A DNA stretch of 64,000 bases from Botryllus schlosseri (taxonomy: Eukaryota), in assembly GCA_051294905.1 (NCBI GenBank), contig CM119372.1:22074001-22138000 (forward strand), given 5' to 3'. The translations under genes and the position numbers were made by a program. The notes beneath the pieces were generated by a model. It saw only the letters and a list, made by a program, of their open reading frames with translations, was not told the DNA's origin and ran no database searches. The number at the start of each line of letters is the position of its first letter. Within the stretch, counting starts at the first letter, position 1. This document shows positions 1-63,052 of this stretch, piece after piece.

Positions 1-889
1 GTAATTTACCAACTTTAAATCCATTCGCGGATGTACTAAAGGTAAATCCAAATAATCCAAAATGAAATATTTGGACTTTGACATAGTCTGAATTGAAATA
101 GATTGACAAACATGACTACCAACTTTCCCGCAGTCCCATTTCGATATTATATGCACATTGATTTGAAACAAGTAATGAAACATTACAACTCTATTCGCGA
201 TCCCGCTTTCCGTTTGTCAAAGAGATATTTTAACATCTTTCCATACTCAAAAGAATTCTTCACAACATTAACAATTGTTAAAAATCTAGTTTTCACTTAC
301 TTGATTATATCACTACAACTCACAAACTTGAATTAATTCATCCTGGCTGTATTCGTATGATCGGTCTTTTTTATTCGATTGTAAAGGTCGTTACTATTCT
401 GAAGACAAAGTATTTACTAATCGGTACATATACGATTTGACTTGGACATATTATATTTTGAGTATACGAGATTTGAATGTCCGAACAATAACTGAGAATT
501 AATTTATCACAATTAAATCCGTATATTACAGCGTAAAAGATATTTGGGGGTCAGCAACTCTGTACGGTCGTAGTTACAACCACATTAACTAATCTACCCA
601 GGCAACTCGTCATGATCATTCCTGAAATCAACACAAACACGACCACTGACTTGAGTTAACCGCGAAACAGCATCAAGTTTTAAATCCGCTTGCAGCTGAC
701 GGATTATTCGAATACATCGATGGAGAATATTATTGAACTCGTCGGTATTGTTACTTCAACAAATTACACCGACTGCGAAAGTTAATATTGAATGGTAAGA
801 CTTGATCACATATTTGTTGATCACAGACATGACAAAAAAACATGACCGAGATTTTATAAACTAGTCATATTACTCTACACATCTATCAA

Positions 890-1600
890 TATCAAAATGC
901 GAGTCATCCAATTTTTCTACTAAAGTAACATTGCACTTTCGGATTCGGTATAGTCATACAAATTGTATTAAATCCAACATCAAAACAAAAGGATTTTTTT
1001 TAGTTTATTGAAATCAAATCATTCGTCTTCGACTTGTGCTTTTCTAGATTGCACGCAACAATTCGTTACGAATGAGCTGTAACCAAAGTTAAGAATTCTT
1101 TGTGTCCACAGATATAGAAGATGAATATAGCTAACACAATCACGAATCGACGTTTCAGAGTATTTCACGGATGTAATAAACTTGTTAGTGTCGCCTATCT
1201 AAAAGTATGCATGCGTTCGATTTCCATACCGACTGTTGCGATGTTTAGGATTCGCTTACCATGACCAAGAGTGAGGATTTAACATCAATGTCGTTACTGG
1301 AGGTATTCACAACAGAGAATCGAAACATTACACAGTGTGAAAATATATCTTTGATATCAAAGCACTATCCCAAGTACACGATTAATACTCAACTCCGTTC
1401 ACACTTTCTATAGAACGTGCTAAATGTAAAATATCACGAGGTTGCACTCTAAGACTTTGATCATTACAAAAGTAAATTGAATATGTTTGCTCGACGCATT
1501 CAATTCAACTAGAAATGTCTAGGGCACAACAATCGTAATATTAAGGAAGTACTTGCTACACTGTAATTCACTTAACGTGTTTTGCATTGTTGTTCATTTG
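890..1600 (+). pseudogene. Highly decayed A32-like packaging ATPase relic (mirror copy at 7962-8672, minus)
   Basis: Colinear fragments across stops and frameshifts: HP..F; SDSV*SY (three single-nt changes from Walker A SGSGKSY); EL*PK; LLEVFT..ENISLI; LNVKY..VAL*DFDHYKSKLNMFARRI (cf. recalled Polinton motif LNAHYIVLFKNPRDKSQI..LARQ). Span ~230 codons. Recognised by eye only. Confidence 0.4.
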
Positions 1601-2194
1601 TAGTATTGATTGTTTTTGAACCCCCAAATAATAATTCTCGACATGAAACCAAACCGCTGAAAGTCGTTACCATCACAACGAAACAATGTGAACGATGTTT
1701 GCCAAATGTACCCTATGGTTAGGTGTACTAGAATTATTTGTGTAACACATACACCGACAATGTAATCGAAAATTTTTCCGTTGTCATTCGCTAAAGTAAA
1801 TGTCATCACAATACTCTGTCACTAAAGATCTTACTTGTATCTGATTGAATCACCGATAATTAACTCGCTAAATCAAACCATAAGGAAATTTCACTCACTC
1901 ATCAGATATGAAACAGCGTCGCTTAGTCGGTGTAGATCGTTTTTCTAAATGCAAATCATACCTGACCAACAGAAAACAATTTTCACTCACCTTGTAATGA
2001 AACCAAGTGGTGGACCTTCGTTCAATATTTTGTTTGTGTCAAATACTTTGCAATAAACACAGTGGAGTGGTCGAGCTTTACAGCAGCAGACTGTAATCTG
2101 TAAATCAAGCTTACATCCGACTTGTAACTGTATCGTTTACCTAACCGAGTTGTATGCACAGTTTGATATTTTTTGTTATTTGGTAATTGCTGAA

Positions 2195-2910
2195 TATACT
2201 ACTTCGAAATACTCCCTTGAACGTAATTTCCATCGTCGTAATAATCGAAGTACATTTGTGTCGAATTCGTAACAGCCGACTATGACATGATAAATTTTTG
2301 ACAAGTTATGCTTGGAAGATTGGTTGTATATCACGAAAAATAATTACCGCTCATATTGATACTGTTATCCATTGTTCGGTATTTTCAAACGAGTAAAATT
2401 TATTACTCGAGTTACTCCGCTTAATGCAAATGTAAACACAACCGTCTTTCAACATCGCAAAGACATCGGTACAAAGTATACAATCAAACGCAACAAGTTT
2501 TACTTTCGTAGGTTGTGTATGGTTATCCTGCATAACTCATTTCTTACCAAAGCCATATGAAATAAATTCATGTTACACGAAAATATTCACTCATGCTACA
2601 AACCTGTACAATGATTGGTGGTGCTTTCAAACTGTTTCGATACCTCAAGAACTTTATTGTCTGAATGGTTGTTCATGTATCGTAATAATCAAGTAGTTCA
2701 ACACAGAACTAGTATTAACAGAAACACCAGAGTTGTTTACACAAAAGTTTGTATGTGTACAGTATACGAATACCATGTGTAAGTCCAGCACAATTGTGGT
2801 ATCCATACGAGTTTAGTTAACACAATTTACGACACCGAGGTCGCGTCATCTTTCGTAAGACAACAAACCAAGGCTTCAGGATATGTCCATGTCATAGCAA
2901 TGAATCGGCT
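2195..2910 (+). pseudogene. Highly decayed retroviral-like c-integrase relic (mirror copy at 6652-7367, minus)
   Basis: Colinear fragments: YTTSKYSLERNFHRR (cf. YTLHKP.RR.F.RR); *QVML (WQADL); NNYR/HIDTVIHCSVFS (GYKYILTVIDVFS); TPL; RNKFY (GKEFY); EINSCYTKIFTHAT (E.KAS.VERFNRTL); NN...HRTSI; SGY. Many stops and frameshifts. Recognised by eye only. Confidence 0.45.
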
Positions 2911-5414
2911 ACTCCAACAACAGAGTGCATATGTTTTCTAGTTACGGTGCTTACATCTTACACACAAATCAATCTACTTTGCTAACGAAAAGTGGTGAGT
3001 CATCATATGGTTATCCTCACTAGTAAAACATACTATCATACAAAATGGTCGTTATAGTTTGCACACCAACGGTACATCGTACAAGTAACAAGTCTCGAGA
3101 ATCCAGTTATTCAAAAAACGTGAAAGTATTTCTACACCAAGTCGTTATGTTGACGAAAGCGTATATTGTAATATCATGATCGATTTGCATTCGTTGGTCA
3201 CAAACTGTCACTACTCTAAATAATTCTTTTTCACTCAAACACAAACGCATACTTGTCACCATTCGTTTTCATCAAGTACGAGTTCAAGAAACTTACTACG
3301 ACATGAATTTTTATTTTTATGTTGTGTAAATAGGTAATAATTAATTCAAGTAACACTATATCAACATCATCGAGTTGTGCTAATAGATTTACATGTGGTC
3401 TTGTGGTTTTCATCGGGACATACAGCACGAACTAACTGTAGACTCCTCTCTGTTGTACAGCTACTCGGTAATCGAAATGCATTAACATGTAAACAACGAT
3501 CTTGTTTCGTCACACCAAAAATATGTTCACTGTCGCGATACTCCGCACAAGACGTGCATAGCCTTTTCACACTCGTAATAGTATACCAACGTCAAGCGAT
3601 AACGTTTAACAAGACCAACGACACTGAACCCACGACGTTTACCTATGTAAAATTACCACTTTCACTAACCAGTCCATCGTTTACCTGACTAAACATATTA
3701 TTTTCCTTTGGAGATCTGATGTTTACCCAGAGTAAGAAACCTTTTTCACTTGGAAATCTATTTTTTCTTTGGCTAACAAACCTTTTTTCACTTGTTAATA
3801 TATTTTTTCCTTGGCTAACAAACCTTTTTTCACTTGGAAATCTATTTTTTCTCTGGTTAACAAACCTTTTTCCCCGGGTAACAAACCTTTTTCCCTGAGC
3901 AACAAGCCATTTTCACTTGGTGGTCCGTCGTTTACCTGAGTAAAAATATCAGTTTCCTTTGGGGATCTGGCGTTTACCCAGTGTAACAATACATTTTCGC
4001 TTGGAACAATACTTTTACCTAGAGTAACTAATCATTTTCTCCTGGGTAACAATCCCTTTTCGTCTGGAAACTATCATTTAACTGAGTACCAATATCGTTT
4101 TCACTTGGAAATACATTTTTTCCCTGGGTAACAATACCATTTTCGTTTTGAAAACTGACAACCACACCGGTCAATTTGATATTTTTGTATATTGTTACAA
4201 CGAACAGTGACGGAAATATACACAGACTACCGGTTTCAGAGTACACCCCATCGGTCGTATCACGTCAATATCATCGGTTAACCACATACAATATACTCTT
4301 GTACACCGAAATGCACGCTTTGGAAAATTGGACAATAGGCTGCGATAGTTCTGTGATGTCCGGGTTCGTGCTTTAGATTTTCCAGAGTCAAAATGTCTGA
4401 ATAAAACACCTCCTCGACGACGGTTGGTATGTGGATAACGGTGTTCGGAAAACGGTTGGATTTATGTCACCCATCGCGATAACAATTCCAGGTCGAGTTT
4501 TCCTCCCGCATGTTTACTATATTGTGTCTTTATTGGTCAATGTATGTCTCGACATTCAGTTTGAAATCGGAAATGATAAAGTATGTAACCGGATCCGGAT
4601 ATCAACTCTGAATCGATAAACCAATGAACAATATTCAAAGTAAACATGTTACACCCTGTGTTTCCACGAAAAAATACCATCCAGACATACGTCGCGCTTG
4701 TTTGCCCACATCAGTATACGCGCAAATGGAGGTGTGTGACATTGCATGCAATGTGTTGGTATACAAACATCGATCCACAGACATTATCATAGCCGTTGTA
4801 TACCAACACATTGCATGCAATGTCACACACCTCCATTTGCGCGTATACTGATGTGGGCAAACAAGCGCGACGTATGTCTGGATGGTATTTTTTCGTGGAA
4901 ACACAGGGTGTAACATGTTTACTTTGAATATTGTTCATTGGTTTATCGATTCAGAGTTGATATCCGGATCCGGTTACATACTTTATCATTTCCGATTTCA
5001 AACTGAATGTCGAGACATACATTGACCAATAAAGACACAATATAGTAAACATGCGGGAGGAAAACTCGACCTGGAATTGTTATCGCGATGGGTGACATAA
5101 ATCCAACCGTTTTCCGAACACCGTTATCCACATACCAACCGTCGTCGAGGAGGTGTTTTATTCAGACATTTTGACTCTGGAAAATCTAAAGCACGAACCC
5201 GGACATCACAGAACTATCGCAGCCTATTGTCCAATTTTCCAAAGCGTGCATTTCGGTGTACAAGAGTATATTGTATGTGGTTAACCGATGATATTGACGT
5301 GATACGACCGATGGGGTGTACTCTGAAACCGGTAGTCTGTGTATATTTCCGTCACTGTTCGTTGTAACAATATAAAAAAATATCAAATTGACCGGTGTGG
5401 TTGTCAGTTTTCAA

Positions 5415-5885
5415 AACGAAAATGGTATTGTTACCCAGGGAAAAAATGTATTTCCAAGTGAAAACGGTATTGGTACTCAGTTAAATGATAGTTTCCAGAC
5501 GAAAAGGGATTGTTACCCAGGAGAAAATGATTAGTTACTCTAGGTAAAAGTATTGTTCCAAGCGAAAATGTATTGTTACACTGGGTAAACGCCAGATCCC
5601 CAAAGGAAACTGATATTTTTACTCAGGTAAACGACGGACCACCAAGTGAAAATGGCTTGTTGCTCAGGGAAAAAGGTTTGTTACCCGGGGAAAAAGGTTT
5701 GTTAACCAGAGAAAAAATAGATTTCCAAGTGAAAAAAGGTTTGTTAGCCAAGGAAAAAATATATTAACAAGTGAAAAAAGGTTTGTTAGCCAAGGAAAAA
5801 ATAGATTTCCAAGTGAAAAAGGTTTCTTACTCTGGGTAAACATCAGATCTCCAAAGGAAAATAATATGTTTAGTCAGGTAAACGA
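5415..5885 (+). repeat. Degenerate ~21-bp tandem minisatellite inside the palindrome arm (mirror copy at 3677-4147)
   Basis: Units such as GAAAAAGGTTTGTTACCCGGG / GAAAAAGGTTTGTTAACCAGA / GAAAAAATAGATTTCCAAGT. Translates as 7-aa repeats ENGLLLR-EKGLLPG-EKGLLTR. Confidence 0.85.
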
Positions 5886-8800
5886 TGGACTGGTTAGTGA
5901 AAGTGGTAATTTTACATAGGTAAACGTCGTGGGTTCAGTGTCGTTGGTCTTGTTAAACGTTATCGCTTGACGTTGGTATACTATTACGAGTGTGAAAAGG
6001 CTATGCACGTCTTGTGCGGAGTATCGCGACAGTGAACATATTTTTGGTGTGACGAAACAAGATCGTTGTTTACATGTTAATGCATTTCGATTACCGAGTA
6101 GCTGTACAACAGAGAGGAGTCTACAGTTAGTTCGTGCTGTATGTCCCGATGAAAACCACAAGACCACATGTAAATCTATTAGCACAACTCGATGATGTTG
6201 ATATAGTGTTACTTGAATTAATTATTACCTATTTACACAACATAAAAATAAAAATTCATGTCGTAGTAAGTTTCTTGAACTCGTACTTGATGAAAACGAA
6301 TGGTGACAAGTATGCGTTTGTGTTTGAGTGAAAAAGAATTATTTAGAGTAGTGACAGTTTGTGACCAACGAATGCAAATCGATCATGATATTACAATATA
6401 CGCTTTCGTCAACATAACGACTTGGTGTAGAAATACTTTCACGTTTTTTGAATAACTGGATTCTCGAGACTTGTTACTTGTACGATGTACCGTTGGTGTG
6501 CAAACTATAACGACCATTTTGTATGATAGTATGTTTTACTAGTGAGGATAACCATATGATGACTCACCACTTTTCGTTAGCAAAGTAGATTGATTTGTGT
6601 GTAAGATGTAAGCACCGTAACTAGAAAACATATGCACTCTGTTGTTGGAGTAGCCGATTCATTGCTATGACATGGACATATCCTGAAGCCTTGGTTTGTT
6701 GTCTTACGAAAGATGACGCGACCTCGGTGTCGTAAATTGTGTTAACTAAACTCGTATGGATACCACAATTGTGCTGGACTTACACATGGTATTCGTATAC
6801 TGTACACATACAAACTTTTGTGTAAACAACTCTGGTGTTTCTGTTAATACTAGTTCTGTGTTGAACTACTTGATTATTACGATACATGAACAACCATTCA
6901 GACAATAAAGTTCTTGAGGTATCGAAACAGTTTGAAAGCACCACCAATCATTGTACAGGTTTGTAGCATGAGTGAATATTTTCGTGTAACATGAATTTAT
7001 TTCATATGGCTTTGGTAAGAAATGAGTTATGCAGGATAACCATACACAACCTACAAAAGTAAAACTTGTTGCGTTTGATTGTATACTTTGTACCGATGTC
7101 TTTGCGATGTTGAAAGACGGTTGTGTTTACATTTGCATTAAGCGGAGTAACTCGAGTAATAAATTTTACTCGTTTGAAAATACCGAACAATGGATAACAG
7201 TATCAATATGAGCGGTAATTATTTTTCGTGATATACAACCAATCTTCCAAGCATAACTTGTCAAAAATTTATCATGTCATAGTCGGCTGTTACGAATTCG
7301 ACACAAATGTACTTCGATTATTACGACGATGGAAATTACGTTCAAGGGAGTATTTCGAAGTAGTATATTCAGCAATTACCAAATAACAAAAAATATCAAA
7401 CTGTGCATACAACTCGGTTAGGTAAACGATACAGTTACAAGTCGGATGTAAGCTTGATTTACAGATTACAGTCTGCTGCTGTAAAGCTCGACCACTCCAC
7501 TGTGTTTATTGCAAAGTATTTGACACAAACAAAATATTGAACGAAGGTCCACCACTTGGTTTCATTACAAGGTGAGTGAAAATTGTTTTCTGTTGGTCAG
7601 GTATGATTTGCATTTAGAAAAACGATCTACACCGACTAAGCGACGCTGTTTCATATCTGATGAGTGAGTGAAATTTCCTTATGGTTTGATTTAGCGAGTT
7701 AATTATCGGTGATTCAATCAGATACAAGTAAGATCTTTAGTGACAGAGTATTGTGATGACATTTACTTTAGCGAATGACAACGGAAAAATTTTCGATTAC
7801 ATTGTCGGTGTATGTGTTACACAAATAATTCTAGTACACCTAACCATAGGGTACATTTGGCAAACATCGTTCACATTGTTTCGTTGTGATGGTAACGACT
7901 TTCAGCGGTTTGGTTTCATGTCGAGAATTATTATTTGGGGGTTCAAAAACAATCAATACTACAAATGAACAACAATGCAAAACACGTTAAGTGAATTACA
8001 GTGTAGCAAGTACTTCCTTAATATTACGATTGTTGTGCCCTAGACATTTCTAGTTGAATTGAATGCGTCGAGCAAACATATTCAATTTACTTTTGTAATG
8101 ATCAAAGTCTTAGAGTGCAACCTCGTGATATTTTACATTTAGCACGTTCTATAGAAAGTGTGAACGGAGTTGAGTATTAATCGTGTACTTGGGATAGTGC
8201 TTTGATATCAAAGATATATTTTCACACTGTGTAATGTTTCGATTCTCTGTTGTGAATACCTCCAGTAACGACATTGATGTTAAATCCTCACTCTTGGTCA
8301 TGGTAAGCGAATCCTAAACATCGCAACAGTCGGTATGGAAATCGAACGCATGCATACTTTTAGATAGGCGACACTAACAAGTTTATTACATCCGTGAAAT
8401 ACTCTGAAACGTCGATTCGTGATTGTGTTAGCTATATTCATCTTCTATATCTGTGGACACAAAGAATTCTTAACTTTGGTTACAGCTCATTCGTAACGAA
8501 TTGTTGCGTGCAATCTAGAAAAGCACAAGTCGAAGACGAATGATTTGATTTCAATAAACTAAAAAAAATCCTTTTGTTTTGATGTTGGATTTAATACAAT
8601 TTGTATGACTATACCGAATCCGAAAGTGCAATGTTACTTTAGTAGAAAAATTGGATGACTCGCATTTTGATATTGATAGATGTGTAGAGTAATATGACTA
8701 GTTTATAAAATCTCGGTCATGTTTTTTTGTCATGTCTGTGATCAACAAATATGTGATCAAGTCTTACCATTCAATATTAACTTTCGCAGTCGGTGTAATT

Positions 8801-10684
8801 TGTTGAAGTAACAATACCGACGAGTTCAATAATATTCTCCATCGATGTATTCGAATAATCCGTCAGCTGCAAGCGGATTTAAAACTTGATGCTGTTTCGC
8901 GGTTAACTCAAGTCAGTGGTCGTGTTTGTGTTGATTTCAGGAATGATCATGACGAGTTGCCTGGGTAGATTAGTTAATGTGGTTGTAACTACGACCGTAC
9001 AGAGTTGCTGACCCCCAAATATCTTTTACGCTGTAATATACGGATTTAATTGTGATAAATTAATTCTCAGTTATTGTTCGGACATTCAAATCTCGTATAC
9101 TCAAAATATAATATGTCCAAGTCAAATCGTATATGTACCGATTAGTAAATACTTTGTCTTCAGAATAGTAACGACCTTTACAATCGAATAAAAAAGACCG
9201 ATCATACGAATACAGCCAGGATGAATTAATTCAAGTTTGTGAGTTGTAGTGATATAATCAAGTAAGTGAAAACTAGATTTTTAACAATTGTTAATGTTGT
9301 GAAGAATTCTTTTGAGTATGGTAAGATGTTAAAATATCTCTTTGACAAACGGAAAGCGGGATCGCGAATAGAGTTGTAATGTTTCATTACTTGTTTCAAA
9401 TCAATGTGCATATAATATCGAAATGGGACTGCGGGAAAGTTGGTAGTCATGTTTGTCAATCTATTTCAATTCAGACTATGTCAAAGTCCAAATATTTCAT
9501 TTTGGATTATTTGGATTTACCTTTAGTACATCCGCGAATGGATTTAAAGTTGGTAAATTACCAAAATGATTGAATATTATCGGGTTAGAGATAGTTGGTA
9601 TTGATTCTATAACTGTTAAAACAGCGGCGTGGAATGTGTGAATAATTCAATGTGACTGAAAGTCGGCGTCAGTAATATTCAGGTTACGGTCGAATCAAAG
9701 GATCACGTTAAAAAGATTTCTCAAATTAATTAGAATTGTACCGGATCAACACATTCAAATACGAATCAACTTGAGCTGTGTAGTAAGTTTCATTTCAAGT
9801 TTGACATATTGACACATTACTTGTATTTTCGCATGATTCTTATCATACAACTAAAGTCAACCACGTTCCGAAGTGTCAAACATATAGCGACCACCAGAAA
9901 GTGCCAAATTGTTGGTTTACGAATCACCGTCTGCGACGACTCTGGGACAAACTAGTTACGGAAATATTACCTTGTGAGCGATCGGTATGTCTGTAACACC
10001 AAATCATGAGCGATCGCTATGTCTGGAGCATTACCCTGTGAGCGGTCGTAGGATTTTAAAATGATATCACACCCTTTTGAATAAGCGTTCACTTCACAAA
10101 GGATTAGGGTTAGAGCGGAAATAAGTGACAATTTGTCGCTATTCAAGTTACCGACACTGGCGGTCTGTTATTCGTTACTTATTAAATCGTACGAGTGAAA
10201 TCAAGCTCTGTGCCAAACTGCTTACGAAAATTTCACCGCGTGAGCGATCGATATGCCTGTAACATCAAGTCGCGTATGTCTGAGACATTATCTTGTCAGC
10301 GAACGCAGGGTTTGCAAACTATTTCACACCTATTTGGAGTGTTAATATGTGAACGCGGCTATTGTTGGTATTGGAATCGCCGTCTACGACGGTTCCGTGG
10401 TAAACCAAGCGACTGATTCCTAGATTTAGCAAACTATTTCACACCCTTTTTGGTGAAAGTACGACATGCCGCTAGCATTCTATCAACGAAAGTACGAATC
10501 ATCGCCGCGTCCACAAGAATAACGATATATCATTGTCGTACTCACCGCAAACGTTGGGATTAACTCGAATCGGTCATATATAATAATTTGTAATATACAC
10601 ATTAACTAAGAATCAATCACGTGACTATTTACTATTCCTGATACTTCTTCAACACAGCGCGAGGGTTGACTATACCCGAAAGGG

Positions 10685-10964
10685 CGAATCACCGCTACCG
10701 CCTATAGCAAAAAAGGTGAGTCATGACCGCGAGTATTTCAATACGAGTCACCGCCGCAGCCTATACCTGAAAGTACGAGTCACGACCCCGATTTTTCAAT
10801 ACGAGTCACCGCCGCAGCCTATACCCGAAAGTACGAATCACGGCCGCACCCATAAGAACCCATTACGAGTCACCACCACAAGGGGGGTCTGAAAGTACGA
10901 GTCACCACCCCGGGTTTTCAATACGAGTCACCACCCCGCCCATAAGCCACAATGGCGAATCGCG
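10685..10964 (+). repeat. Subterminal array of 10 CGARTCAC-like motifs
   Basis: Motif starts at 10685, 10717, 10744, 10776, 10802, 10834, 10866, 10898, 10924 and 10956; spacings 32, 27, 32, 26, 32, 32, 32, 26, 32. Confidence 0.9.
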
Positions 10965-10983
10965 ACCGATCATACTAACTACT

Positions 10984-11024
10984 TACACCCTAGGGTGTAC
11001 GACCACCCCGGTTGAAGAGCACTG
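10984..11024 (-). mobile_element. 41-bp terminal piece of a hAT MITE interrupted by the giant element
   Basis: Reverse complement CAGTGCTCTTCAACCGGGGTGGTCGTACACCCTAGGGTGTA matches 53834-53874 with one mismatch and stops abruptly at the ACTACT terminus. Confidence 0.9.
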
Positions 11025-11124
11025 GGCTAGTGTATTGTAGGATATCAATTTCTTTCATCTTCTCGACGCTTCGTATTCGATCCTCTATTTTTGCCGATAA
11101 TAAGAGAATGTATAGCATGTCGCT

Positions 11125-11504
11125 CAGAATTGTCAAACTCAACTGACGTCGCGGGTCGAATTCAAATATACAGATCACTCGCGGGCCGCACCAGTCAAAT
11201 GATTCCTAAATATTACGAACCCTAAACTCAGTATATGCACTTTTTCGCATTCTCGGAATTGAAAGTTATTGTCAGCGATTTTCTCCTGACGATAACTACA
11301 ATCACAACTCCGCTGTCGCGTTGTTATAATGTGGCCTTTGAACATACTCGAAATTTGCTATCTTGAAGGAATATTTATTAGTGGTATTTCTTACTGCAAA
11401 TTCGAAAATGTGTTGGATAAAATCACGCAATTTTCACGATATACTCAGAATTTCTTCGCGGGCCGAATGAAATCATTTGGCGGGTCGTACGTTTGACACC
11501 CCTG
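11125..11504. mobile_element. hAT-type MITE
   Basis: CAGAATTGTCAAAC...GTTTGACACCCCTG ends, CGCGGGCCG internal motifs, 8-bp TSD ATGTCGCT/ATGTAGCT. Confidence 0.7.
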
Positions 11505-11694
11505 ATGTAGCTAGACAACTACTTACGTATTTTATTATCCGTTCTACGTGTGCGTGAGCGATACAAGGCATTTTTGCATCTATATTTACCTTTATATTCG
11601 TTATTTGATTCAAGATAAATGACCAATTGACCTCTTTAACATAGCCAGTAAAATATAATGAATTTGAATGATCACTCATGCTTCGAAAATTCAA

Positions 11695-11855
11695 TTTGAC
11701 TTGACTTGACTCGAGTCACCTCCAAAAAACGGGTGACTTGACTTGACTCGAGTCACCTTTGAAAATCGATTGACTTGACTTATTGACTCGAGTCAAAATG
11801 TGCAATGACTGGAGATGACTCGTGACTCGAAGGTAGTGACTTGATCCCAACACTG
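11695..11855. mobile_element. End fragment of GACTCGAGTC-rich hAT MITE (family A)
   Basis: Ends GTGACTTGATCCCAACACTG, the reverse complement of the start of 58545-59463. Confidence 0.8.
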
Positions 11856-14189: not shown

Positions 14190-42719
<28,530 letters not shown>

Positions 42720-45520: not shown

Positions 45521-46489
45521 AATTTTATGTACACTTCAGTGACAACCGTGAAAGGAAATATGTATTAGTATACTCATTCTGTTATCTTAGCCAGTCTGAG
45601 TATTTCACACAGTATACGATACCGCAATTTATAGATATATTATACAATTCACAAGTTAAACATTACAGTATCAATTAAGTTAACCCATACCAATTAGAAC
45701 AATAACAAACGATAACTGCATCAAATTTCAGAGTTATACTCCATTGTAACATACCTTCCATCCGTTAGTTCGTTTATCTATATTTTTCATAAATTCTAAA
45801 CACCAGCACACATACGCTACATGATAAAAACACCGTCCGTAGCCCGTAGGTATACCGTAATCGTTTACACTAATATATGTCCAGTGTAATTGGCAAAACC
45901 AAGGATATCACTCATATTAATTTACAAGGACTGATACTGCCGCATTCTCGCATGAAGAGCCAAAGAATCGCATGACTGAAATCGCACTACAACCATCGAG
46001 ACAAGAACAACTACCGGAAACGACAACAGCATCCAGATCTCGCTCGCCAGACGAGAAGCCGCGGCCACCACGAGAAGCACGACTTCTTCTGAATGGCATC
46101 CGCGCGAAATATCCATGCGTACATGGTCCGCGTTACGGCGAATATCGGCTTAGGCTACGACAAGATTTTGTTTGACCAGTGCTATAGTCATGCTATCCTT
46201 TATAATTGTGTTATAGACTTTCAAAAATAGTCACGCATAAATGTATATCATCGAGATTTTTATCAATTAACTGAACCTACGAATACACGACATAAAATTA
46301 GTGGGACGTGTAGAACGTAAAATTGAGATTGATGTACTCTACAAGTGTACGGTTGTACCATAGCAATTTACAGCGTAGCGTCTGTAGTTCATACAGATGT
46401 GCTCAATGCTTAATCAAGTTGTCACATTGCCATTGTAAATATGTTATTTCTGGAGTATTTTCAATAACTGGAAATAAGTAGGCCTACTA

Positions 46490-48832
46490 CTGCAAGCTTG
46501 AATGCCGTCACCAGTGAACAAATGCCCAAAGTGCATGAGTGGACGTCCCATAATAGCCTTCGGGTTAACGCTGCGAAATCCCAATTATTGGTCGTGAACT
46601 CCTGCGATAACCTAACCGTTGACATCGCTGACCAACCAATTTCCAACACTAAAAATGCCAAATACCTTGGTGTTTTACTGGACTCGGACATGTCCTGTAA
46701 GAGTCACATACAATCACTCAAACCACAACTATCGAAGGTATGTGGTCTTTTTCACCGCCTTAGCTACATTCTGCCGGTCAGCGTGCTGTTGATACTCTTC
46801 AACACTCTATTCCTATCAAAGTTACAATACGGAATTATTTGTTGGGGTGCTGCCTGCAAGAATACAATTGATCCACTGAAAAAACTTCAACATCGGATCA
46901 TCCGTATCATAACCAAAGCCCCACGGGGGCCTGGATGTGCAACTGATAAATCGCTTCTTAAAAGATTTGGTGTTCTAAACTTAGAAGATATGAGGAAGCT
47001 AGAGATTGCCAAGTTTATGTATCAGTTCCATTGCGGTCAATGTCCCTGAAATTTCAACGACTACTTCACCTCGGAGACAGAAGCGGACAAGTACAGCACA
47101 CGCGCGTCAACGAAGAACAAGCAGAGGTGGTCAAAGTAGTCAAGAAAGCTACTCAAGTAGAAGTAGAAGTAGCGGCGAAAAAATCTACTCAAGTACGAGT
47201 AGAAGTACTTCTTCCGTAAGTCACCTAAAACTACTTTAAGTAGAAGTAGAATTGACTGACTTTAAATCTACTCAAGTAAGTAAGTAGTTTTGAAAACAGT
47301 CTTAATTCGTTCACTTGGACTGTCAAAAGCTGCAAATTGAGCTATGCGGAAGGTGCAGAGAGCTTGATTCGTATTGATGCATCCCAGGAGGTATCAATTT
47401 TCGACAGAATATACATTCTTTCGCATCATGGGATGCAAATTATAGCATTGATATGAAAATGCGATACTAACCCTTTGTTTACTAGCAAACCCCGTTTTAG
47501 AGAATATCATGACATGACGCCCTACCCCATATTATAAGGCCCCAAGTTTAGGCGAAGAGCAATACGGAGAAGTTGTATCGGATACGGTTTCAACACTTTG
47601 CGAGATTAGTTAACGTTAATAACTAATATTGTGGATCGTAAAATTTATATTTAGTGAAGCTTTATTTTTGGAAAATAGAGGCATTACTATACACTTGCTT
47701 TTATGCTTCAACATGTATGTTCTGCAGACAAAAGAACTGAAAGTAATTAGGACTGAAAGTATGATACTCGGAATGCAAAGTTAAATATAAATACCACTTC
47801 TAAAAAGCGGAAAATATATATTTCATGTCTTTTGTCCATAAAGCTTCATAGGTGATCTGCTAAAACAGATGTAACGTTCAGAAAGCACTTTCCAGATTAG
47901 CCCGACCCGTCATAGGCTGCTAGATTACGATATGATAGGTAATTGCTCGATTGCGAATCGGTAGTTTTGTAATCTTATGGTGGGCCTTATTTACTGTGAT
48001 GAAATATTTGATGTGATGACAATGCGACAATGCGGTGTGAGCGGAATCAAGCAATCCGGTAACTAAATAATATTCACCGATACTTTCGTGAAAACATATT
48101 TGTCAATCCACATAACTACTGTGCGCGAAGCGCAGCAAAATTTCTGGGCTTTGCTTGACTTTTATGAACATTAAACGTTGGTACTCCGTGAAAACAGCCC
48201 CGAAATTCCTCAGGCTAGCTTTCGTATTGGGGGATTAAACTACTTCTACTTGACAAACTGAAAATAGCGAAAAGTAAGTAAGTAGATCACAAAATATTAC
48301 GAAGTAGAAGTAGAAGTAGAGAAAATCAGATCTACTTGAGTAAGTACCAGAAGTAGAGGAAAACTACTTGAGTACTTCCAAAAAGTAGAAGTACTTCGTT
48401 ACTGACCACCTCTGAGAACAACTACCATATGATCAGGACTGAATAACAAGAAAACGCATTGCTCTATCAAGTATGCAGAACCCCAATTGTGGAACAGCAT
48501 CTCGCCGGCTATCCGACAGTCGTCGAGCATGTGCGCATTCAAGTCGAAATACAAGCAATTTCTTCTAAATCAATACTAGCCAGTCTTCAGGATTACCGGA
48601 CCACGACCTAACATCGACCTCGCCCTCCGCCACATGCCACCCCATTTTGTCGCTTGCGTCTTATATTCTCTGCATTACTTTTCATTCAGTGTGCATGCCT
48701 CTTATTTACTTCGCCTAGGCTAAAGTGGGTGTCTGATCTTAATGGCTACTCCAAGTTGTTTCGACACCTTCCTATCTTTTCATTGTATCGCAGTCTTGTG
48801 ATGTTTTGAAACGATGAAAATATTAATAAACC

Positions 48833-53774: not shown

Positions 53775-53833
53775 GACTAGACGGTCCGCTATATGAGCAG
53801 TTTATAGAAGAGAGAAACAGTGATATATTAGAC

Positions 53834-55426
53834 CAGTGCTCTTCAACCGGGGTTGTCGTACACCCTAGGGTGTACCAGAACTTTCAAAGGGTGTACCACT
53901 CGGATGGGGTGTACAGGGGTGTACCAGATCCACATTATGATTAACCGATCATACGATGACTATAGCTATCACAAAAATACGCCAGTTTATGCTTCAAAAC
54001 AGAATGACTGGATGTGTAATATCGTACAATGTGATGTCATAAGCAAATGTTTCTAATTATTCAACCTTTGGTAATGGGACTTATTACTTCCTTTTCGAGC
54101 AGAGCAGGGTGTAGTTAGCATGTGTTCAGCTTGCGATATCTGTCTGATGATTCTCGAGGAAACCACCGCTAAATCTCGGACATTTTGAATTTGTGCTTCC
54201 TGCGGCCAGCTTATGAATAGTGCAGAATACATAGCCTACTTACGCAGCCACGGGGTCGAGTTTGCGAACCACTGCGTTAGATGGTGGTCCAGTAAACTCG
54301 AGCCCTTCTTCGTATTATCATTTACTATACGTTGCAGTCTTGCTCAAATGTCCATCCTTATTTCGGCTACGTCAGGGGTGCTCAACCTGCGGACGTACGG
54401 CCTCATTCAGCATAACCATAATTTTGCGATCTTCTACACATATTTAAATTAGCGTGTGTTGGCGGCCGTCATTATGTAACCAATTGTTGGTGGTTCTAGT
54501 CTCGGCTCTGCCATGTTTCTATGTGTCGGAGGATTATGGTTCCTCGTCGCCGACCCCCTGTTAACGTAGCGTCTTGAAAAGCCCAGAAGAAGAGTTAACC
54601 GAGCTTCAAAGTCAGCAGCAAAGTCCTGAAAGTGGACGCACGTTAGCGAGAGAGAATGAAGAATGGGAGTGCGCGTGCAAGCAAAAGTCGTCCTCATTAC
54701 CCAAAGCAAAAATACTAAACTTTAGGAAATGCACTGTCGTGGCGCACAAATTCTAAACAGGCGATTATCACCACTGTCATTGATGTGTAATAAAATATTA
54801 TTATTTAACAATACAAACAATCCTGGTGGGAGGCCAAGAAATAACAACATGCAACTAAGTGATTAATAGGAACCGCAAGATGCATCATCATTAATATTGT
54901 ACCCAATATTTTCGAAAACACCCTCCATCAGCTCTACGGGTTAATCTGATCACGTGAGCTGAGAATTAATAAATTTTTGACAATAATATGTGAAACTACC
55001 AACATTTTCGATGAAATCCATTCAAGGGGCAAAATTTTCGCGCTCTGCGCGACTACACACATAATCCTAGTGTCTTTTCTTGACATTTATACTCGCGATT
55101 TTGGTACATAAATTATATGTTGTAAGCCTGCTGGGATGTTTTGCTTCTACAGTAAGAAAATTTGCGCATTGCATATCTCAAGAAATAAGTGAAGGCACAG
55201 AACACCACAAGGGCTCTCCGTGGTGTTAAGTTCCCAGTATCAAATTTCATATGAGCATTTGTCATCCATGCGCCATGGCGAATCCCCGTTGGAATCCGGA
55301 CGTATTGTATATATGTAATCAAAATGCGGCTTTCGGCGTTATCGGTGTATTATACGGTCCGGGGTGTACGAGTTTTGAGAAAATGTTAAAAGGGTGTACC
55401 ACGACGAAAAAGGTTGAAGAGCACTG
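53834..55426. mobile_element. Non-autonomous hAT element (same family as the target of the giant palindrome)
   Basis: TIR CAGTGCTCTTCAACC, GGGTGTAC repeats, flanks TATTAGAC / TATTAGTG-TATTAGAC. Confidence 0.85.
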
Positions 55427-60993: not shown

Positions 60994-63052
60994 CAGGGGT
61001 CACCAACCCGGTGCCCGCGGGCACCAGGTAGCCCGCGAGCCCATTCTAAAAATAGGTGGAATAGCAGTAGTAAACAATATTACTTAATTACTATTCGTAG
61101 TCAGATAGCCGTGAAGTACTAGCAGATTTTCAATATCTGTATACCCGTTACGTATTGCATCTTTTGGCACAGCTTGTTTCTGTTACACTCAACGCAGTTT
61201 AATATACCATGTTTCTAAGTTTCTAAGTTGCTGCTGTCCGGTATAATGAAATTTTGTCATTTCTGGATGCTGAACAGTTGGAGATTGAAATTGTAACGCT
61301 GCAAAATGACCCCCACCTCAGTCTGCAGCAAACGTTTGGTGCATTCTTAATCAGAGGTGGTCAGTAACGAAGTACTTCTACTTTTTCGAAGTACTCAAGT
61401 AGTTTTCCTCTACTTCTGGTACTTACTCAAGTAGATCTGATTTTCTCTACTTCTACTTCTACTTCGTAATATTTTGTGATCTACTTACTTACTTTTCTCT
61501 ATTTTCAGTTTGTCAAGTAGAAGTAGTTTAATCCCTTAATATGAAAGATAGCCTGAGGAATTTCGGGGCTGTTTTCATGGAGTACCAACATTTAATATTC
61601 ATAAAAGTCAAGTAAAGCCCAGAAATTTTGCTGCGCTTCGCGCACAGTAGTTATGGAGTAACAAATAGGTTTTCACGAAAGTATCAGTGAATATAATTTA
61701 GGTACCGGATTCCTTGGTTCCGCTCTCACCGCATTGTCGCCCATATCAAATATTTCATCACAGTAAATATGGTCCACCATAACGTTTGAAAATACCGTTT
61801 CGCAATCTAGCAATTACCTATCATATCGTAATGTAGCAGCCCATGATGTGTCCTGCTAATCTGGAAAATCCGGCTTTTTTAAACGTTACACCTGTTTTAG
61901 CAAATCACCTTTGAAGCTTTATAGACAAAAGACATGAAATATATTTTCTGCTTTCTAGAAGTGGTATTTGTATTTCACTTTCAATTCCGGGTATGATACT
62001 CGGAGTATGATACTTTGAGTTCTAATTGCTTACAATTCTTTTGTCTCCAGAACATAGGCCTACATGTTGAAGCATTAAAGCAAGTGTAGCAATGTCTCTA
62101 TTTTACGACAATAAAGCTACACTAAATATAAATTTTACGATCCACAATATTTGTTAATAACGTATACTAATCGCGCAAAGTGTTGAAACCGTATCCGATA
62201 CAACTTTCCCGTATTGCCCTTCGCCTAAACTTGGGGCCTTGTAATATGGGGTAGGGGGCCATGCCATGATATTCTCTAAAACGAGGTCTCCTAGTAAACA
62301 AATGGTTAGTATCGAATTTTCACATCAGTACTATAATTTGCATCCCATGATGCGAAAGAATGCTTATTCTGTTGAAAATTTATACTTCCTGGGATGCATT
62401 TATACGAATAAAGCTCTCTGCACCTTCCGCATAGCTCAATTTGCAGCATTTGACAGTCCATGCGAACTAATTAAGACTGTCTCAAAACTACTTACTTACT
62501 TGAGTAGATTTAAAGTCAGTCAATTCTACTTCTACTTCAAGTAGTTTTAGGTGGCTTATGGAAAAAGTACTTCTACTTGTACTTGAGTAGATTTTTCCGT
62601 CGCTACTTCTACTTCTACTTGAGTAGCTTTCTTGACTACTTTGACCACCTCTGTTCTTAATACGGAAAAGTACAGTGGTGTATGCGCAGCAGCTATGAAG
62701 GTTACAAGCGTCTATGGTTCAACTTATCGTTGTGAATCAGCCTTTTCGCTCATGAACTTCATCAAAAACAAAGACAAAACACGCTTAATTAATGCACATC
62801 TGAAACACTCACTCAGAATTGCAGTGTCAAGTTAAATACCAGAGTACAGCGCACTAGTTGATATCATACAATGCCAGGCTTCCCGCTGACCGCTATAGAA
62901 ACAGATAACATGATGTCTAGTCCTGCCCAGTGCTGTGAATATCAAAGCGGAAATTCAGTGTGGTACGGGTAAACGGCGGGAGTAAAAAGTAGCCCGCCGC
63001 TTCAATCATTACGCAAAAGTAGCCCTCGGATGCAAAAAGGTTGGTGACCCAT
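60994..63052 (+). mobile_element. Buster/GTF2IRD2-type hAT element with a transposase C-terminal relic
   Basis: CAGGGGTCACCAACC...GGTTGGTGACCC, TSD TCTAACTA/TCTAACAA; EQLEIEIVTLQND and YGSTYRCESAFSLMNFIKNKDKTRL..HL...LRIAVS. Confidence 0.88.
61352..62653 (-). mobile_element. Family-E hAT MITE inserted in the Buster relic
   Basis: TIR CAGAGGTGGTCA, perfect TSD TTCTTAAT. Confidence 0.95.

Follow-up and report, generated by a model that had tools for sequence, protein, structure and literature searches.

Non-autonomous Polintons are exemplified by a named zebrafish element, Polinton-1N1, and, amongst viruses, snap-back or copy-back defective genomes are self-complementary molecules that retain only their termini and depend upon a helper. 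Polintons are defined by the possession of an integrase together with pPolB, at least in the excerpts of PMC5499653 and PMC6431247 that address this point, and intact vertebrate Mavericks, as described in part of PMC8097293, measure 12.7-24.6 kb, with inverted repeats of 46-1,447 bp, 6-bp duplications and an (ACT)2 end. In C. elegans, Polinton remnants consisting of 744-bp TIRs are reported in an extract of PMC11414722. With regard to replication, the model outlined in portions of PMC4196379 and PMC4046053 holds that an excised single strand forms a racket, which is copied by a protein-primed polymerase; as far as these portions go, the folded single strand as a route of Polinton replication is so far a model drawn from sequence. 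No description of whole-element palindromic Polinton satellites was found in the literature surveyed, the scope of which lay outside Repbase and the founding paper on non-autonomous Polintons.

The window analysed here, i.e. the whole 64,000 nt stretch of Botryllus schlosseri DNA (GCA_051294905.1, CM119372.1:22,074,001-22,138,000, forward strand), opens within a palindrome. We consider it probable, though by no means assured, that this is a young copy, with a length of ~12.4 kb assuming symmetry, of an abundant fold-back satellite that is gene-less and helper-dependent and has Polinton/Maverick-type ends. This reading draws on the palindrome itself, its right end, the host repeat that it cuts, a diverse family of copies, rare alleles present in both arms and the lack of detectable core genes, all as observed; the mechanism set out below is our proposal. 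The features concerned are as follows (strand given where assigned).

1-4766: left arm, visible part; runs off the window start, with ~1422 nt more predicted upstream
890-1600: putative ATPase relic of the first-pass annotation; unsupported, with the behaviour of non-coding arm sequence
2195-2910: putative integrase relic of the first-pass annotation; unsupported, with the behaviour of non-coding arm sequence
3656-4148: internal tandem array with 21/42/84-nt periods, mirrored at 5414-5906
4767-4795: unpaired loop of 29 nt, a probable remnant of a longer central spacer
4796-9561: right arm, the mirror of 1-4766 with 5 substitutions
9562-10983: right arm, outer part; its partner would lie before the window
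9940-10944: subterminal repeats, from repeat comparison
10978-10983, plus strand: terminal ACTACT, the (ACT)2 Maverick end motif as given in part of PMC8097293
10984-11035: host repeat cut by the insertion, matching 53823-53874; its first 6 nt are a candidate target-site duplication

Direct comparison of the arms confirms the palindrome, with 1-4766 being the reverse complement of 4796-9561. The first-pass annotation had reported only five arm differences, and this count is exact: there are 5 substitutions over 4766 sites (pairs 240/9322, 2507/7055, 3768/5794, 4095/5467 and 4187/5375) and 0 indels, giving an arm-to-arm divergence of 0.105% (Poisson 95% interval 0.03-0.24%). The 29-nt loop is unpaired in the predicted centroid fold. 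Beyond the paired region, multi-copy contig coverage of 9562-10983 continues to ~11010 in all four of the runs mapped. An inverted repeat of 4766 nt is thus observed, and it would extend to both termini: by symmetry from the right end, the predicted arm is 6188 nt and the element 12,405 nt, with its left end 1422 nt before the window, such that the 1.4 kb preceding the window should mirror 9562-10983. The subterminal repeats of 9940-10944 comprise a 140-nt pair (9940-10079 and 10206-10336) as well as 32- and 58-nt units, and one 9-nt word occurs seven times at 10743-10931, all within 240 nt of the terminus; these copies are possibly binding sites at a replication origin. With regard to composition, the element is AT-rich (37.6% GC), and its CpG observed/expected ratio is 1.29 (4796-10983), against 1.00 in the host part of the window. 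CpG is therefore over-represented, and the family carries no sign of methylation-driven decay.

The right end of the element is ACTAACTACT at 10983. A 52-nt, 92% match to the host repeat at 53823-53874 begins exactly at 10984, and the 30 bases before this position show no match to that repeat upon sequence comparison; the abrupt start of the match therefore indicates that the insertion interrupted a copy of this repeat. At 6 nt, the end motif is short, with 46 matches to ACTACT or its complement across the window, but the boundary is set independently by the cut repeat. Of the Polinton/Maverick pattern (AGT)2//(ACT)2, it is the right end only that is present, as the left terminus and the partner of the candidate target-site duplication would lie outside the window. 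The suggestion that the terminus is crisp hence stands for the right end (10983, ACTACT, host repeat from 10984), the left being beyond view; the idea that this sharp terminus is a mere window edge is wrong, since the end at 10983 is real. It had also been proposed that host MITEs saturate the rest of the window and are missing from the element. Within-window repeat matching, which detects only repeats present twice in the window, covers 0% of 1-10983 and 18.6% of 10984-64000, in agreement with the second half of this statement, but saturation applies only beyond ~39 kb. Between 10984 and 39438 repeats cover just 2.4%, with repeat-free gaps of 8.1, 6.1, 6.8 and 5.5 kb, which are similar to the 6.2 kb of unique sequence in the element. 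Because neighbouring host DNA has equally long repeat-free gaps, the absence of host repeats inside the element is weak evidence of its youth.

Compared with autonomous Polintons/Mavericks, the element shares the (ACT)2 right end and is of the same order of size (~12.4 kb predicted here, against 12.7-24.6 kb in the part of PMC8097293 cited above). In contrast, none of the core genes (pPolB, integrase, ATPase, protease, capsid) is detectable in it, and an inverted repeat of no less than 4.8 kb, probably 6.2 kb, accounts for almost all of its length, against the 46-1,447 bp given for Mavericks in that excerpt. Lacking integrase and pPolB, it falls outside the autonomous Polinton family and works like a non-autonomous derivative. 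It resembles non-autonomous Polintons and TIR-only remnants in having Polinton ends without core genes, so that movement would need a helper. It differs from non-autonomous Polintons in being a whole palindrome with a 29-nt loop, belonging to a diverse multi-copy family, although long arms are possible there also. Snap-back defective viral genomes are similarly self-complementary, keep only termini and depend on a helper (which would be the case here), but they are transient replication products, whereas the element is an integrated chromosomal DNA family.

The first-pass annotation had described ATPase-like (890-1600) and integrase-like (2195-2910) relics, the stops and frameshifts of which were taken as lesions shared by both arms. 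In every profile test, and on both strands, these regions score at background. The supposed lesions are the ordinary stops of non-coding DNA (7-19 per frame of ~238 codons), open-frame lengths in the element match those of simulated sequence, and both arms carry them for no other reason than that their sequence is the same. Pfam searches of six-frame translations, in which stops were replaced by X, identified no family in 9 long frames; the 12 frames covering the claimed relics gave 3 weak unrelated matches (E 0.02-0.08), and a further 30 frames gave 4 weak unrelated ones. The most integrase-looking of the three frames of 2195-2910, compared by phmmer with 1.84 billion proteins, gave 2 matches, neither of them an integrase: a repetitive low-complexity protein, and P0002, an unnamed singleton predicted protein from a 729-nt contig, with no Pfam family. 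P0002 matches element DNA in more than one frame (49-68% identity) and is taken here to be an ORF that arose by chance in a divergent copy of the element; its frame changes suggest a long non-coding career.

Reference sequences of Polinton type were sought by scanning motifs over viral contigs, with one scan yielding 15 loci and three others 0; on a reading of their ORFs, 7 of these are Polinton-type and 8 Ty3/gypsy-like. Amongst the Polinton-type loci, jelly-roll capsid, pPolB and (weakly) protease matches were found in 6 of 12 ORFs checked, and one Polinton-type viral contig, L011, has inverted ends (1-40 and 15558-15597) and may be a complete element. Homology searches added 120 integrases listed out of 6,530, and 118 ATPases; the profiles comprised 44 integrase sequences and, for two ATPase profiles, 98 and 6 sequences. 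Plain hmmsearch with these profiles produced no match (best domain E 13), nor did tblastn of 238 homologues against the element at E 0.05. Frameshift-aware profile search likewise returned no significant match to Polinton ATPase or integrase: the best element scores were 17.0-20.7 bits, against 14.5-22.3 bits for 16 host chunks per profile, with all 8 of the distant gypsy-type integrase loci used as a positive control scoring 34-50 bits. Under a neutral-decay codon model, the claimed integrase reached 13.8 and 23.7 bits (null means 18.5 and 20.0), scores equalled or exceeded by 95% and 25% of 104 host tiles, respectively; the claimed ATPase reached 13.1-20.6 bits (null 17.2-19.9), with 40-92% of host tiles as high, and the opposite strands of the two regions 14.5-19.4 bits. 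With regard to power, control genes left out of the profiles and damaged by 0.6 substitutions per site and 3% indels scored above the null maximum in 9-12 of 12 runs. For the first ATPase profile this figure is optimistic, since a 74% relative of its control remained in it, and a clade far from all reference sequences could escape these profile tests. When whole profile cores were aligned, 11-82% of 44 element tiles scored as high as the claimed relics, with element tiles serving as the null, as shuffles were miscalibrated (averaging above all real tiles). The 7 Polinton-type loci supplied 66 ORFs with a length of 190 aa or more, none of which exceeded its null maximum against the element; these were single-sequence queries with less power, and the short protease ORF was tested by tblastn only. 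No pPolB, jelly-roll capsid or protease gene was detected in the element by these means.

Two further candidates were set aside. Raised scores of all three profiles at 5281-6280 are attributed to the A-rich tandem array, nothing standing out once this was masked, and a GIY-YIG/T5orf172-like reading near 4950-5200, made by eye, has no Pfam support. Two unbroken ORFs of 115 and 72 aa had no usable match in the protein atlas, which shows neither absence nor novelty. Ancient ATPase or integrase gene remains are, then, not supported, and nothing shows that the DNA of the element ever encoded core Polinton genes. The earlier proposal that the sequence decayed over a long non-autonomous career accordingly falls as far as gene decay is meant, there being no significant ATPase or integrase profile match. 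As no gene remains are detectable, the paradox of ancient decay beside young arms vanishes.

The element belongs to a family of copies. Of 24 listed runs from 11 studies, 20 hold the stretch 2000-4795 wholly or partly, and the best of these runs may derive from the source sample. Contigs of 4 runs from 4 studies were mapped on 4720-11700, with 168,667, 8,474, 11,957 and 349 contigs placed and all 30 bins covered. Across these runs, 24-34% of contigs are at 99% identity or above, 30-35% at 95-99%, 29-36% at 90-95% and 3-9% under 90%, corresponding to a mean divergence from the window copy of ~4% (3.8-4.6%, a rough value from band midpoints). Rather than a single-copy locus, the element is thus a diverse multi-copy family in all four runs. 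In run X1 alone, 214 sites of the whole 4720-11700 stretch, flank included, have another letter in at least 20% of depth, and many contig joints are internal deletions among copies. Summed contig depth (an X1 median of 296,734 for element bins, and 27,659, 14,540 and 62,029 for flank bins) is not taken as copy number. In run X15, contig depth varies ~100-fold over 4720-11010 and is highest at 5885-6117 and 10079-10311; this pattern is a lead for possible transcripts, although contig depth cannot rank regions. Scans with terminal 18-mers gave 0 viral matches and 2 metagenome matches, which are unrelated and do not extend.

The centre of the palindrome differs between copies. In run X1, the match of 33 contigs stops at 4795, beyond which they carry different sequence; other copies therefore have a longer spacer, of which the window copy kept 29 nt. 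Amongst the contigs listed, none crosses the 4795/4796 junction. A 29-nt loop in a 12-kb palindrome should be unstable, indicating either a recent deletion or an effect of assembly.

Of 318 variable sites, 40 were listed for allele analysis, and with 7 in the host flank dropped, 33 remained, 26 of them in the visible arm. All 26 are identical in both arms. At 24 of the 26 the window copy carries the minority letter of run X1, and at 10 a different letter makes up at least 97% of the depth in X1. At 5895, 7093, 7479, 7636 and 8302 the letter of the window copy accounts for no more than 0.4% of depth in X1 and occurs in none of the three remaining runs, with the proviso that rare alleles at a depth of 13-111 in X1 could be error contigs, and that X1 is not proven to hold the window copy. 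Changes on the copy's own branch would be expected on one arm; with at least 10 rare shared alleles against 5 unshared differences, the arms therefore appear to have been equalised, and the data favour equalisation along the lineage of this copy, whether during transposition or in the chromosome. The comparison of arm-to-arm with copy-to-copy divergence proposed in the first-pass annotation contrasts 0.1% between the arms with ~4% from the contigs of other copies, which lends weight to its alternatives of recent integration or continual homogenisation. Together with the both-arm rare alleles, it favours equalised arms as well as a young insertion.

A directional component is discernible amongst these alleles. 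At 13 of the 33 element sites, the letter of the window copy differs from one that takes up 97% or more of X1 depth; of these, 9 are A/T to G/C in the window copy, 2 are the reverse and 2 are neutral. This 9:2 bias (one-sided p = 0.033) comes from a threshold chosen after seeing the table, with 40 of 318 sites listed, and six of the nine changes are of the same transversion class; it is hence a hint only. GC-biased conversion in the same direction is reported for primate palindromes in an excerpt of PMC8981503. The element further resembles the mammalian sex-chromosome palindromes of that excerpt in having arms that are more than 99% identical, derived alleles in both arms and a hint of GC bias, but differs from them in being mobile, gene-less and multi-copy, such that equalisation may occur during transposition. 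What is new in the window copy is the combination of shared rare alleles, a weak 9:2 GC bias and a collapsed spacer.

A mechanism can be envisaged in which an autonomous helper Polinton would supply polymerase and integrase, and the excised single strand would fold upon itself, as the racket/panhandle model has it, to give a hairpin paired over nearly its whole length. An element consisting entirely of inverted repeat would thereby form an almost complete duplex with the correct origin at its open end. Mismatches between the arms would be corrected or overwritten in this fold-back, and each new insertion would start with equal arms yet differ from the rest of the family. The 5 arm differences would then have arisen after insertion, and so would date it, and in the window copy or its parent the central spacer would have been deleted almost entirely. 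Whole-arm equalisation does not follow from the racket model on its own, and the correction step is one that we infer. A more ambitious version, that giant gene-less satellites equalise multi-kb arms by GC-biased mismatch correction, on the folded strand or in the chromosome, and stay mobile with a 29-nt loop, is offered only tentatively.

Other explanations account for parts of these data. The same element could have had its arms equalised after insertion by recurrent chromosomal arm-to-arm gene conversion, aided by the tiny loop, in which case the insertion could be much older than 0.1% implies. We regard this as unlikely, though deserving of attention, in that several alleles look private to the window copy and yet occur in both arms, and the A/T to G/C excess runs in the direction seen for palindrome conversion in the excerpt of PMC8981503. 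Set against this, the bias depends on a post hoc threshold and on 40 of 318 sites, the element is AT-rich (37.6% GC), its right end is intact and no host repeat has inserted into it; private alleles would also be expected if the parent copy were absent from the mapped runs, and a bias of this kind could come from mismatch repair acting on the hairpin during transposition. An assembly artefact, in which the reads of both arms were fused or co-polished, or the spacer went missing at the hairpin, would render the near-identity, the loop or both partly artificial. The departure of other copies into a longer spacer exactly at 4795, the lack of a listed contig bridging 4795/4796 and the presence of 0.90, rather than all, of the sampled words in the best run are compatible with this, but the five arm differences persist and are spread along the arm, and the right end and flank are clean; its probability is consequently put lower again.

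Lower still is that of the arm being a remnant Polinton coding module, with an ATPase and integrase decayed beyond recognition or derived from a clade far from the profiles. The Maverick-type end is in keeping with such a module, as are the impression, gained by eye, of short words at 2195-2910 spaced about like integrase motifs, the drift of this region across frames between copies seen with P0002, and the degraded state of 96% of genomic Mavericks (as stated in part of PMC8097293). However, the claimed relics lie at background where heavily damaged control genes were recovered, whole-profile alignment does no better there than on other element tiles, no ORF of the 66 from Polinton loci rose above the null maximum, and neither phmmer match from 1.84 billion proteins is an integrase, so that this reading is largely refuted. 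Drosophila FB-type elements are fold-back transposons, and the internal and subterminal tandem repeats of the element recall them. It could thus be a fold-back transposon of another superfamily, with an end resembling the Maverick motif by chance, and the absence of any Polinton gene and a target-site duplication length beyond the view of the window leave room for this; an exact (ACT)2 at an independently defined boundary makes it very improbable indeed. A young copy of a gene-less satellite with Polinton-type ends is, for these reasons, the reading retained.

Whole-element palindromes with rare alleles in both arms make the folded-strand model testable, as arm-shared versus arm-specific changes across copies and individuals separate correction during transposition from later conversion. 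Should GC-biased equalisation be true, hundreds of independent insertions would record a Polinton replication intermediate, and would allow conversion between arms to be measured directly in a setting other than sex chromosomes.

Beyond the element, several Gln/Pro/Ala-rich open frames on the minus strand (18181-41366) resemble exons of a long host gene; Pfam searches of 13 host ORFs found no family at E 0.01. A 193-aa ORF on the plus strand (46468-47049), which has no Pfam match, resembles the C-terminal part of a LINE reverse transcriptase. A 1.3-kb host repeat occurs twice in opposite orientation, at 47122-48415 and 61351-62653, ~13 kb apart and with 89-97% identity. The host sequence also contains two small fold-back elements, one at 24891-25127 with perfect arms of 86 nt and a 65-nt spacer, and the other at 15510-15760 with 121-nt arms at 93% identity and a spacer of 9 nt.
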